Source: Escherichia coli
Lineage (GTDB): Bacteria > Pseudomonadota > Gammaproteobacteria > Enterobacterales > Enterobacteriaceae
Assembly: GCF_013122565.1 (NCBI RefSeq)
Contig: NZ_CP053258.1
Direction: 5' to 3' (one strand)
Length of the DNA stretch: 64,000 nt
A model generated the notes under the pieces. It was not told where the DNA came from. It ran no database searches and saw only the letters and a program-made list of their open reading frames with translations. Shown piece after piece: positions 3,001 to 55,475 of this stretch. The first letter of the stretch is position 1. Each line of letters starts with the position of its first letter. The position numbers and the translations under genes are program-made.

Positions 3001-4132
3001 CCGGTGCAGGAGCAATAACCGGCTCTCCCGTTTGTGGACCCGGTACAGGCTGCCAGGCTACTGTAGGTTGCGAAGGTGGAACATCAACAGAGGCAACAGG
3101 CGGCGTCTGAGTCACAGGTTCAACCGACGCAGCCCAGCTTTGTGTCGCCGTGGTAGCAGCAGCTGCTACAGCGACAGGTTCGGTAATTGGCGCACCGTTT
3201 AATAATGGATCGTATTCGTCATATTCTGGCTGCGTTGCACGATTGCCCGAAAATAGGACGTCGTCAGGGTCGGCAACCACACCGCGTGCAGTGTAGGTAA
3301 TCTCTTCTTCATCATCCATCCGCTTACCGGAGAACAGCGCAGCATCTGTTTGCCGCCCCATCGGATTAATGAATTTTTCCGCCAACCGTTTACGACGCGC
3401 TAGCGCGCCGCGAAGAATACGGGCACGGCGTGATTCATGCTGTTTGCCGTGATTTTCATCTTCATACTCTTCGTCGTCTTCATACTCATCTTCATCGACC
3501 CAGGTATCATCGCGACGGGTACGATTACTGGCGAAGGTGAGAATGTTTAAAATCCAGCCGCCGAGTTTTTCAGCAATGGTCACCCATGACCAACCGGTGA
3601 ACAACGTCAGGCCCGCTGCCCAAACGCAGAGCAGCGCAATAGTTCCCCCGCTACTGTGTAGCAGTGGTTGTAGCGTAGTGCTTAGTAAGCTGCCAATGAC
3701 GCCACCGGAGGCAAAATACCAGATATCGTCAGCGTTGATTGCCGCCAGACCACAGGAGGTAAGGATGAGCGCCAAAACGCCAATGATGCGTAGCGAAACG
3801 GCAAAATAATCAATGTATTCGTCGCTGGACTGATGACGCCAGGCAAACCAACAACCGCCGACAATAATGACGGGAATGGTGTAAGCCATCACGCCAAAAA
3901 TAAAGAACAGCGTATCTGCCAGCCATGCACCGGGCATTCCACCTAAATTATGGATAGGTTCATGCCAGGCCGTTTGCGACCAGCTGGGGTCCGAAGGGTT
4001 AAAGCTTAGTAAGGCAGCCATCAACCAGACGGCAAACAGGACAATAAGGATCAGCAACGCCTCCAGAAGGCGGCGGCCGCTACTTAACTTTGTCAATGTG
4101 ACTTCTTTGTCTTCAGTGTATTCCTGGCTCAA
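1..4132 (-). CDS. ftsK: DNA translocase FtsK, partial (last ~4 codons and stop lie before window start)
   Basis: Minus-strand frame open from TTG start at 4130-4132 (N-term [18 protein letters not shown]) to window edge; reverse complement of nt 1-60 encodes [20 protein letters not shown], the FtsK C-terminus; PQ-rich linker at 1535-1850. Confidence 0.9.
1535..1850. repeat. Tandem 39-bp repeats (about 8 units) encoding the 13-aa PQ-rich FtsK linker repeat
   Basis: Units such as ttgttgcggctgctgatactgcggctgcggtgcaaccgg recur head-to-tail with minor substitutions. Confidence 0.85.
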
Positions 4133-4266
4133 GAAAGGCTCTCCAGGTTACAGGCTTTTCCTGCCCGATGCTAAAACGGACAACAGTACCAGGTTACCCC
4201 AGTACTGTTGCTGTATGGATTAACAGGAGTGTAATCAAAATACGCCGATTTTGCACCTGTTCCGTG

Positions 4267-4761
4267 TTAGCGCGTCTTTATAACCAGACGATTACTCTGC
4301 TTGACTTCTTCCATAACAACGTATGTCCGTGTGTCATTGACGCCAGGCAGACGCAGCAGGGTTTCCCCCAGCAACTTACGGTAAGCTGACATATCCGGCA
4401 CGCGTGTTTTCAACAGGTAGTCGAAATCACCAGATACTAAATGACACTCCTGAATTTCTTCAAGTTTTTGTACAGCGGTATTGAATTGTTCAAACACATC
4501 CGGTGCGCCACGATTCAGAGTAATCTCAACGAATACCAGAAGTGATGCATCCAGATAATGGGGGTTCAGCAGCGCAGTATAGCCCTGAATAAACCCTTGT
4601 CTTTCCAGCCGACGCACACGCTCAAGGCACGGCGTTGGGGAAAGTCCCACACGTTTAGAAAGCTCGACGTTAGAAATACGCCCATCCTTTTGCAACTCAT
4701 TAAGAATGTTACGATCGATACGGTCGAGATCTTTGCCAGGGCGCTTCTTGCTATCTACCAT
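4267..4761 (-). CDS. lrp: Leucine-responsive regulatory protein Lrp (164 aa)
   Basis: ORF 4267..4815; protein from MVDSKKRPGKDLDRIDRNILNELQKDGRISNVELSKRVGLSPTPCLERVRRLERQG matches Lrp; ATG at 4759-4761. Confidence 0.95.
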   Translation of the reverse strand: MVDSKKRPGKDLDRIDRNILNELQKDGRISNVELSKRVGLSPTPCLERVRRLERQGFIQGYTALLNPHYLDASLLVFVEITLNRGAPDVFEQFNTAVQKLEEIQECHLVSGDFDYLLKTRVPDMSAYRKLLGETLLRLPGVNDTRTYVVMEEVKQSNRLVIKTR

Positions 4762-11696: not shown

Positions 11697-11841
11697 TTAT
11701 CTGCCTGTACGGCAGTGAATATGGTGGGCGGGTGGAGTATGTTACCAGTGAATTTCTAAGCTGCCAGTACGGCAGTGAACGTTCGCTGCAACCGCTAGCC
11801 AAGACGGTAGGTTTTTCTAAGCTGCCTGTACGGCAGTGAAC
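11693..11841 (-). CRISPR. Orphan type I-F CRISPR mini-array: 3 repeats (28 bp), 2 spacers (32-33 bp), no adjacent cas genes
   Basis: Minus-strand repeats GTTCACTGCCGTACAGGCAGCTTAGAAA at 11814-11841 (exact), 11753-11780 (1 mismatch), 11693-11720 (degenerate); spacers 11721-11752 and 11781-11813. Confidence 0.9.
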
Positions 11842-53554: not shown

Positions 53555-55240
53555 GTGAATATAAACGTCGCCGAATTGTTAAATGGGAATTACATTCTGT
53601 TATTATTTGTGGTCCTCGCGCTTGGGCTATGTCTCGGAAAGTTACGACTTGGTTCGATCCAACTGGGTAATTCCATTGGCGTTTTAGTCGTATCGCTGTT
53701 ATTAGGCCAACAACATTTCAGCATTAACACCGACGCGCTTAATCTTGGCTTTATGCTGTTTATTTTCTGCGTCGGGGTCGAAGCCGGACCGAACTTTTTT
53801 TCCATTTTTTTTCGCGATGGGAAAAATTACCTAATGTTAGCACTGGTGATGGTTGGCAGTGCGCTGGTGATCGCCTTAGGGTTAGGTAAGCTGTTTGGCT
53901 GGGATATTGGCCTGACGGCCGGTATGTTAGCCGGCTCTATGACGTCGACACCGGTTCTGGTCGGTGCTGGCGATACACTGCGTCATTCCGGCATGGAAAG
54001 CAGGCAGCTCTCACTGGCGCTGGATAATCTGAGCCTCGGCTATGCCTTAACCTATTTAATCGGTCTGGTGAGTTTGATTGTTGGTGCGCGTTACTTGCCG
54101 AAATTGCAGCATCAGGACTTACAGACCAGCGCCCAGCAAATCGCCCGCGAACGTGGCCTGGACACTGATGCCAACCGTAAGGTTTATTTACCGGTGATCC
54201 GCGCCTATCGCGTCGGCCCGGAGCTGGTGGCCTGGACCGACGGCAAAAATCTGCGTGAACTGGGTATTTATCGACAAACCGGCTGCTACATTGAACGTAT
54301 TCGACGTAACGGGATTCTGGCAAATCCAGACGGTGATGCCGTGCTACAAATGGGCGATGAAATAGCGTTAGTAGGCTATCCCGACGCCCATGCCCGACTC
54401 GATCCCAGCTTCCGTAACGGTAAAGAAGTTTTCGATCGTGACCTTCTCGACATGCGTATCGTCACTGAAGAAGTGGTCGTTAAAAACCATAACGCTGTAG
54501 GTAAACGTCTCGCACAACTGAAGTTGACCGATCACGGTTGCTTCCTTAACCGCGTCATTCGTAGCCAGATTGAGATGCCGATAGATGACAACGTCGTGCT
54601 TAACAAAGGTGACGTTTTACAAGTCAGCGGCGATGCCCGCCGCGTAAAAACCATCGCCGATCGCATCGGCTTTATCTCGATTCACAGCCAGGTCACTGAC
54701 CTGCTGGCATTCTGCGCCTTCTTTGTTATTGGGCTGATGATCGGGATGATCACCTTCCAGTTCAGCACATTCAGTTTCGGCATGGGGAACGCTGCCGGGT
54801 TGTTATTCGCCGGAATTATGCTGGGCTTTATGCGTGCTAACCACCCGACCTTCGGTTACATTCCGCAAGGTGCATTAAGCATGGTGAAAGAGTTCGGCTT
54901 GATGGTGTTTATGGCAGGCGTTGGTCTGAGCGCCGGTAGCGGTATTAATAACGGCCTGGGCGCGATTGGCGGTCAAATGTTGATTGCCGGATTGATTGTC
55001 AGTCTGGTGCCCGTGGTTATCTGTTTCTTGTTCGGTGCTTATGTATTGCGAATGAACCGCGCACTGTTGTTCGGCGCAATGATGGGCGCACGCACCTGCG
55101 CGCCGGCAATGGAGATCATCAGTGATACAGCTCGCAGTAACATCCCGGCGCTGGGCTATGCGGGCACCTACGCAATCGCCAACGTCCTGCTGACGCTGGC
55201 AGGGACAATCATCGTCATGGTATGGCCAGGATTAGGATAA
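53555..55240 (+). CDS. ybjL: Putative AAE-family transporter YbjL (561 aa)
   Basis: ORF track protein; two membrane domains flanking TrkA-C/RCK_C-like segments. Confidence 0.9.
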
Positions 55241-55283
55241 AACTGAAGTTGCCCTGAAAATGAAATTTTTTTGCACAACCGCA

Positions 55284-55310
55284 GAACTTTTCCGCAGGGC
55301 ATCAGTCTTA
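55284..55310 (+). promoter_or_regulatory. SigmaE-type promoter of rybB
   Basis: -35 agaactt (55284-55290), 15-bp spacer, -10 tctta (55306-55310), start about 7 nt downstream. Confidence 0.6.
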
Positions 55311-55316
55311 ATTAGT

Positions 55317-55395
55317 GCCACTGCTTTTCTTTGATGTCCCCATTTTGTGGAGCCCATCAACCCCGCCATTTCGGTTCAAGGTTGGTGGGTTTTTT
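55317..55395 (+). ncRNA. rybB: RybB small RNA (sigmaE-dependent, Hfq-binding), 79 nt
   Basis: gccactgcttttctttgatgtccccattttgtggagcccatcaaccccgccatttcggttcaaggttggtgggtttttt matches the RybB sequence as I recall it, including terminator hairpin and U-tract. Confidence 0.9.
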
Positions 55396-55475
55396 GTTGC
55401 CTGAAATTTATGCCTTTTAAAATCATGATGTTAGAAGCACTGTTTTTTAACGATGGCGACAAAATGGCGGCAGCG

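Follow-up and report, generated by a model that had tools for sequence, protein, structure and literature searches.

Phage 186 occupies a tRNA-Ile gene, Fels-2 occupies ssrA, and remnants of P2 are found at cyaR/ryeE. P2-family and other temperate phages use tRNA and tmRNA genes as integration sites, inserting at their 3' ends (Williams 2002, as cited in PMC10121019), small RNA genes have been described as prophage targets in general (Bobay et al. 2013), and ryeA/ryeB is a prophage hot spot in Salmonella according to work cited in the latter study. With respect to rybB, Table 2 of Archer et al. 2011 (PMC3032704) lists 'rybB ncRNA' as the site of the P2-like elements Rybb*W, Rybb*B and Rybb*Cr of E. 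coli W, B and Crooks, and the same table gives cyaR as a P2 site, an association to which the original prediction for the locus studied here had pointed. In the E. coli pan-genome, hotspot #29 consists of Felsduovirus prophages within rybB in 109 genomes (Hochhauser, Millman & Sorek 2023, PMC10121019), and the Klebsiella pneumoniae Kpn2146 island Kpn38RybB is a Fels-2/P2-like prophage lying 'precisely within' rybB (Hudson et al. 2014, PMC4048246).

Here we analyzed a 64,000-nucleotide stretch of E. coli DNA (the window) in which rybB is followed directly by phage genes. We conclude with high confidence that the interval at 55284-55475 is the ogr-side junction of a P2-family prophage (Peduoviridae, Elveevirus/Felsduovirus-like) integrated through its attP at the 3' end of rybB. 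The use of rybB as a P2-like integration site is already published, and the observation is in this respect a correct rediscovery. The additions are anatomical and comprise a 27-bp core, an attP hairpin that shares an arm with the RybB terminator, pairs of TGGCGRCA repeats, a likely exchange point and a rare secondary site in ptrR; neither the core and attP anatomy, the exchange point nor the ptrR site was found in the searchable open-access literature.

Anatomy of the rybB-ogr junction

The host side of the junction contains the following features:

53555-55240, plus strand: ybjL, the host gene upstream of rybB (561-aa open reading frame; matching genomes annotate an aspartate:alanine antiporter)
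55284-55310, plus strand: sigmaE-type rybB promoter GAACTT-N16-TCTTA (pattern match; same as K-12), with the -35 element GAACTT at 55284-55289, a 16-nt spacer, the -10 element TCTTA at 55306-55310 and the transcription start at 55317
55317-55398, plus strand: rybB small-RNA gene, the RNA spanning 55317 to about 55395 (Rfam and fold)
55351-55391, plus strand: RybB intrinsic terminator hairpin, with its 3' arm at 55380-55391 and the U-tract running to 55395 (fold and Rfam consensus structure)

The original prediction of a complete rybB, with a sigmaE-type promoter, a 79-nt RNA and a terminator, was borne out in each of its parts. Rfam family RF00110 matches 55320-55398 on the plus strand over its full 79-position model (positions 1-79; E = 2.5e-20), scoring 104.1 bits where the gathering score is 40, the published RybB 5' end GCCACUGC begins at 55317, and the gene keeps its conserved place downstream of ybjL. 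While the promoter was read here from the sequence, its dependence on RpoE is taken from the literature, where it is the top RpoE-holoenzyme SELEX peak in E. coli (PMC5493296). The sigmaE-type pattern occurs twice in the 64-kb window, where 0.23 occurrences would be expected; the only other match to GAACTT-N15-17-TCTNA, at 37466-37493 on the minus strand, may be due to chance, as two or more matches arose in 3 of 100 shuffles. A simple terminator scan of 55200-55800 returned no match, probably because the RybB hairpin exceeds the loop limit of 8, and the terminator was assessed by folding instead. Both the MFE and the centroid fold of the 79-nt RNA contain a long terminator hairpin followed by a U-tract (-24.6 kcal/mol), with the same structures obtained for K-12. 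Elsewhere in the window, an 85-nt tRNA with a long extra arm (Rfam RF00005; 11385-11469, plus strand) adjoins two CRISPR-DR4 repeats (11753-11841, minus strand), and a match to naRNA4, a REP-element-derived nucleoid-associated RNA, lies at 39229-39309 on the minus strand (71.9 bits, Rfam).

The att core and the first phage gene follow:

55385-55411, no strand: att core of 27 bp at the ogr-side junction (B-O-P'), GTGGGTTTTTTGTTGCCTGAAATTTAT, with a second copy at the int side of the ETEC6335 prophage
55476-55694, minus strand: ogr, a P2-type zinc-finger late-gene activator of 72 aa and the last phage gene before att (NF007241, E = 2e-28, and phrog_603)

A prophage ogr gene had been expected to end with its stop codon at 55476. 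The open reading frame does end there, and its identity is supported by the matches to the ogr equivalog NF007241 and to phrog_603; the RefSeq label for this coding sequence, in a genome with 99.8% identity to the window across 55150-55800, is 'ogr/Delta-like zinc finger'. The core was found by the alignment with a prophage-free rybB-rcdA junction that the original prediction had proposed, and it overlaps the rybB terminator rather than lying well away from the gene, in keeping with the expectation that it would sit within or just after the rybB 3' end. Since the core begins at RybB nucleotide 69, it holds the last five paired bases of the terminator 3' arm, the U-tract and 13 nucleotides beyond the RNA. 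The homology of empty sites to the window ends at 55411; in K-12, which carries ybjK (rcdA) beside rybB as the original prediction had stated, it stops 4 nt short of the rcdA stop codon.

The second core copy was identified in a relative, ETEC6335, which is 99.8% identical to the window over 55150-55800 and has an identical junction across the 95 nt compared. This genome carries a complete 35.3-kb prophage that runs from ogr through late genes, replication genes and CI/CII to an integrase adjoining rcdA (int at L001 35937-36989), the product being a P2-family tyrosine recombinase (phrog_1, E = 1.5e-75). In this test on the relative, not on the window strain itself, the core is duplicated at both prophage ends and single in nine empty sites, with one mismatch in the int-side copy at the equivalent of 55403. 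The three arrangements read as follows:

rybB-side junction: ...GGTTG GTGGGTTTTTTGTTGCCTGAAATTTAT GCCTTTTAAAATC...
int-side junction: ...AGATAA GTGGGTTTTTTGTTGCCTAAAATTTAT CTACTACCC...
empty sites: ...GGTTG (A/G)TGGGTTTTTTGTT(GC/AT)CT(G/A)(A/T)AA(T/C)TTAT CTACTACCC...

In the record of phage 4LV2017 (KY271398), the 19-bp attR annotated by the depositors lies inside the 27-bp core, and the rybB-ogr junction corresponds to attR there.

attP and the point of strand exchange

A pattern joining the int-downstream hairpin to the core was used to search for attP and returned 18 IMG/VR contigs, three of which are int-side junctions with E. coli rcdA. L023, a 39.9-kb metagenomic viral contig, runs without interruption from int (3456-4508) through the hairpin and the core (4583-4609) into a P' arm that is the same as that of the window and on to ogr; it holds an unintegrated, intact attP. 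Three other candidate sources were set aside: vB_EcoM-813R9 and Kp4880-1 are excised-prophage records, with host flanks or starting at the junction, and phage Cartapus has another module beside ogr.

In attP, the left end of the core forms the 3' arm in the hairpin AACCC(A/G)TTTA(C/G)ATAA(A/G)TGGGTT, which is followed by a T-tract. Two variants of this int-downstream hairpin were found, both with the core as 3' arm and with predicted energies of -9.6 and -9.2 kcal/mol (z = -2.8 and -2.7), and from its position the hairpin looks like a terminator for int. The 3' arm and T-tract of the phage hairpin (A/GTGGGTTTTTTGTT...) are identical in sequence to their counterparts in the RybB terminator, its 3' arm and U-tract.

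Two observations bear on where within this shared sequence the strands are exchanged. First, the core copies of ETEC6335 differ at the equivalent of 55403, with G on the rybB side, like attP, and A on the int side, like some empty sites, which places the exchange left of 55403. Second, in strain N32 the ptrR (yneJ) gene is split by a prophage whose integrase is 95% identical. The ogr-side junction in N32 reads CAGGTTAATGG|GTTTTTTGTTGCC... and the int-side junction ...ACATAAATGG|CAGTAAC..., compared with CAGGTTAATGGCAGTAAC in intact ptrR, and the two junctions have only AATGG in common, which aligns with 55384-55388 of the window. This gives a further feature of the junction:

55384-55388, no strand: probable strand-exchange region inside the terminator 3' arm, from the junctions at the ptrR secondary site

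On the basis of this one rare secondary site and the one mismatch between core copies, strand exchange most likely occurs at about 55384-55388, inside the terminator stem, in which case the rybB-side sequence from about 55389 rightwards, including the RybB U-tract, would be phage DNA. The ptrR junction is present in 5 of 5426 complete E. coli genomes. In AR_0013, too, ptrR is split by a prophage with a 95%-identical integrase (N32 and AR_0013 loci: L003 2990-3030, L009 14590-14610 and L010 490-520), and the ptrR sequence to the left of AATGG, CAGGTTAATGG, resembles the rybB sequence AAGGTTGATGG.

Together, these features suggest a model in which the tyrosine integrase would recombine attP, located between int and ogr, with the 3' end of rybB, the exchange taking place within the 3' arm common to both hairpins at about 55384-55388. 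The 5' arm of rybB would then be followed by a 3' arm, a U-tract and 13 more identical bases, all of them phage-borne, and the 5' arm of the int-side hairpin by the host-borne copy next to rcdA. Such a swap of shared halves would rebuild both hairpins and leave rybB intact.

The P' arm extends for 64 bp from the core to the ogr stop codon (55412-55475) and contains candidate sites for the proteins expected at an attP of this type:

55421-55433, plus strand: IHF-like site AATCATGATGTTA, one mismatch to the consensus WATCAANNNNTTR, a candidate from sequence only
55454-55461 and 55465-55472, plus strand: putative arm-type Int sites TGGCGACA and TGGCGGCA, 11 bp apart

The attP of P2 comprises a core, an IHF site and arm-type Int sites made of direct repeats. 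In related lineages the P' arm has a perfect AATCAATCACTTA at the same offset as the IHF-like site of the window, and the same TGGCGRCA pair as in the P' arm is also found in the P arm, within the 3' end of int. L023 contains eight matches to the arm 8-mer against 1.17 expected, four of which form two pairs flanking the core, and in reference genomes of other genera the pair recurs at +46/+57 relative to the core, with ogr next wherever the sequence retrieved extends far enough. By analogy with P2, the TGGCGRCA pairs are probably arm-type Int binding sites.

Integrity of the prophage and of RybB

Beyond ogr, the window continues into a late-gene block on the minus strand:

55785-62622, minus strand: P2-type late/tail module (open reading frames; 96-97% DNA identity to Elveevirus phages; same annotation in ETEC6335)
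55785-56885, minus strand: gpD (open reading frame, phrog_52)
56882-57367, minus strand: gpU (open reading frame)
57364-60441, minus strand: gpT, tape measure (open reading frame)
60568-70, minus strand: gpE (open reading frame)
60925-61440, minus strand: FII, tail tube (open reading frame)
61450-62622, minus strand: FI, tail sheath (open reading frame)
62765-63336, minus strand: Gin/Hin-type tail-fiber DNA invertase, frameshifted (two open reading frames; one G missing relative to the intact ETEC6335 gene)

From the open reading frames and family matches, the order FI-FII-E-T-U-D-ogr ending at att is the late-gene order of P2, and the phages to which the block is 96-97% identical are Cartapus and 4LV2017 of the Peduoviridae genus Elveevirus. 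The DNA invertase and tail-fiber segments come next, beyond FI. The window ends at 64000, inside the prophage, and the int-side junction was seen in relatives rather than in the window; the closest genome in the collection is 97.9% identical to the window over 11 kb. We infer that the int end of this strain's own prophage is still present beyond base 64000.

The alternative that survives best, though we regard it as unlikely, is that the element is a defective, non-excisable remnant in this strain, with its int end or other essential genes gone, which would leave a fossil junction in place of a live attachment junction. The tail-fiber invertase is frameshifted, the window stops before the remainder of the prophage, the tape measure gene is pseudogenized in the relative ETEC6335, and defective P2-like elements have been described at rybB, for example Rybb*B in E. 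coli B (Archer et al. 2011). The 1-nt deletion in the invertase does indicate some decay, and the element may be decaying, with the tail-fiber switch probably locked in this strain judging from the broken reading frame. However, all eight late genes from ogr through FI are intact open reading frames, the late genes retain their 96-97% identity to complete phages, and a complete prophage of 35.3 kb has an identical junction with identical IHF-like and arm sites. Moreover, the DNA invertase is dispensable for growth of P2-like phages. An integrated P2-family prophage is the reading that we retain.

A second alternative is that integration changes RybB, in its terminator stem, its 3' end or its level, such that lysogeny would rewire an envelope-stress small RNA. 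The window RybB differs from that of K-12 at a single position, A to G at nucleotide 69 (A69G; G at 55385), which converts a U-A pair of the stem to U.G, and ogr converges on rybB from a distance of 77 bp. An early suspicion that this G was derived from the phage came from the first four empty sites, all with A, and the two ETEC6335 junctions, both with G, and proved to be a sampling artefact: G also occurs at empty sites and A occurs in a Klebsiella lysogen. The G allele is present in 738 genomes, and among the seven of these that were fetched, all five carriers of the full core are empty, with rcdA directly beside rybB. Furthermore, A69G leaves the predicted structure the same, with an energy difference of 0.6 kcal/mol (-25.2 for K-12 and -24.6 for the window), and the window sequence is identical to that of many empty sites to 13 nt past the U-tract. 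A change in RybB upon integration is thus very unlikely. The RybB sequence of the lysogen equals alleles at empty sites, which indicates that the phage supplies the 3' end without detectable alteration. The original prediction that the phage may supply or alter the rybB terminator therefore stands in its first half, given a phage-borne 3' end as implied by the probable exchange point, and falls in its second, as the sequence is that of the host.

The remaining two fetched genomes with the G allele (23CRST011 and ABW_A19) have an insert of about 770 bp encoding a serine acetyltransferase between the rybB terminator and rcdA, which begins inside the att core after GTTATCTAAAT and has no flanking repeat that could be seen (L008 560-850; L036 1245-2025). 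Across the nine empty E. coli sites (L002, L005-L007 and L031-L035), which were picked across identity bands of a core-containing query and thus form a biased sample, the 27-bp core has six variable positions in many combinations, compared with none in RybB nucleotides 1-68 and five in the next 120 nt; apparent variable positions upstream in this comparison were an indel artefact. Precise excision at a fixed exchange point is expected to leave no scars. We consider it improbable that the shared terminator half has a role beyond keeping rybB whole, with antisense ogr or late read-through entering rybB at induction, or that phage traffic lies behind the mosaic core at empty sites, but if true, either reading would link an envelope-stress small RNA locus to prophage activity.

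Distribution and comparison with known systems

Occupancy of the site was assessed with a 651-nt query across the junction, which matched 5418 of 5426 complete E. coli genomes. At a query coverage of at least 80%, ogr lies beside rybB in at least 1104 of the 5426, while in the remaining genomes the match stops at window position 55411 or 55398 and most have rcdA there. An ancient remnant fixed in all strains, which the original prediction had raised as the contrary case, is not what is found, as the prophage is polymorphic and K-12, among others, is empty. The integrase of ETEC6335 is approximately 56% identical to that of PSP3; 19 phage records are at least 80% identical to it, with 2 in the 95-99% band and 13 in the 90-95% band, and the integrase of Kp4880-1, a Klebsiella phage assigned to Elveevirus 4LV2017, is 94.9% identical.

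The site extends beyond E. coli. We scanned one genome per species for an exact 22-nt core, an approach that is uninformative on species with a differing rybB flank, and found this core immediately downstream of rybB in reference genomes of Citrobacter, Enterobacter, Kluyvera, Lelliottia, Atlantibacter, Shimwellia, Silvania, E. albertii, E. whittamii and others. Junctions in which rybB, core, arm sites and ogr follow one another were present in Shimwellia pseudoproteus, Silvania confinis, Enterobacter wuhouensis and Escherichia sp. E1V33. In the Enterobacteriaceae isolate RIT714 the arm sites are present and ogr lies about 0.85 kb from them, Kluyvera georgiana has rybB, core and arm sites without an ogr match, and int-side junctions were found in several further species. 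The site is thus heavily used, being occupied in no fewer than a fifth of the complete E. coli genomes and used in several other enterobacterial genera.

Two side observations emerged from these loci. In Citrobacter sp. R56 (L041) and in L071, L076 and L078, the int-side hairpin and core are followed by an apparent P' arm, not by host sequence. These second P' arms contain the IHF-like consensus, with a TGGCGRCA arm site in L041 only, and the four loci represent either prophages lying in tandem at rybB or chromosomal joints that resemble attP. Separately, L016, L025, L028 and L076 belong to one lineage with a (CACCAA)n microsatellite of variable length approximately 30 nt after the core.

That the adjacency to rybB is incidental, the real target being the rybB-rcdA spacer or rcdA itself, can be dismissed as highly implausible, for although the RNA ends before the last 13 of the 27 core bases, the left 14 are terminator 3' arm and U-tract, the probable exchange point falls inside the stem, the right flank of the core differs from species to species across genera with rybB as the constant left neighbor, and the Klebsiella island lies 'precisely within' the RybB gene (Hudson 2014).

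Compared with the published cases, the window shares its host species, site and phage type with Rybb*W, Rybb*B and Rybb*Cr, and BL21 genomes have the same ybjL-rybB-ogr junction. However, retron Ec86 is present in Rybb*B, whose junction shows 95.6% identity over 68 nt; the window prophage is a different variant, and Archer et al. 2011 (PMC3032704) give the site only, without core or attP anatomy. Hotspot #29 corresponds to the window in site and phage group, with 109 genomes reported as compared with at least 1104 of 5426 here; that study concerns defense-system cargo, and the usual cargo region of the prophage lies outside the window. Klebsiella phage 4LV2017 (KY271398) has the core of the window and a nearly identical P' arm, but the Klebsiella cases belong to another host genus and have an annotated attR of 19 bp, as opposed to the 27 bp of identity in E. 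coli.

The likeness to P2 itself is one of attP architecture, as attP lies between int and ogr, both arms carry paired 8-bp repeats one helical turn apart, and an IHF-like site is present. In contrast, the core and host site differ from those of P2, and the ETEC6335 integrase is only 35-37% identical to those of the Peduovirus (P2) type. For annotation, the junction marks the left end of the prophage and shows rybB to be intact despite the insertion. As in tRNA and tmRNA integration, the core overlaps the 3' end of a structured-RNA gene, and by carrying a replacement 3' end the phage would allow its target RNA gene to survive. The rybB site differs from those systems in that the target is a sigmaE-dependent, Hfq-associated small RNA and that an intrinsic terminator is used instead of a tRNA-like arm, and it thus represents a clean case of a small RNA terminator serving as an attachment site in the manner of tRNA 3' ends.
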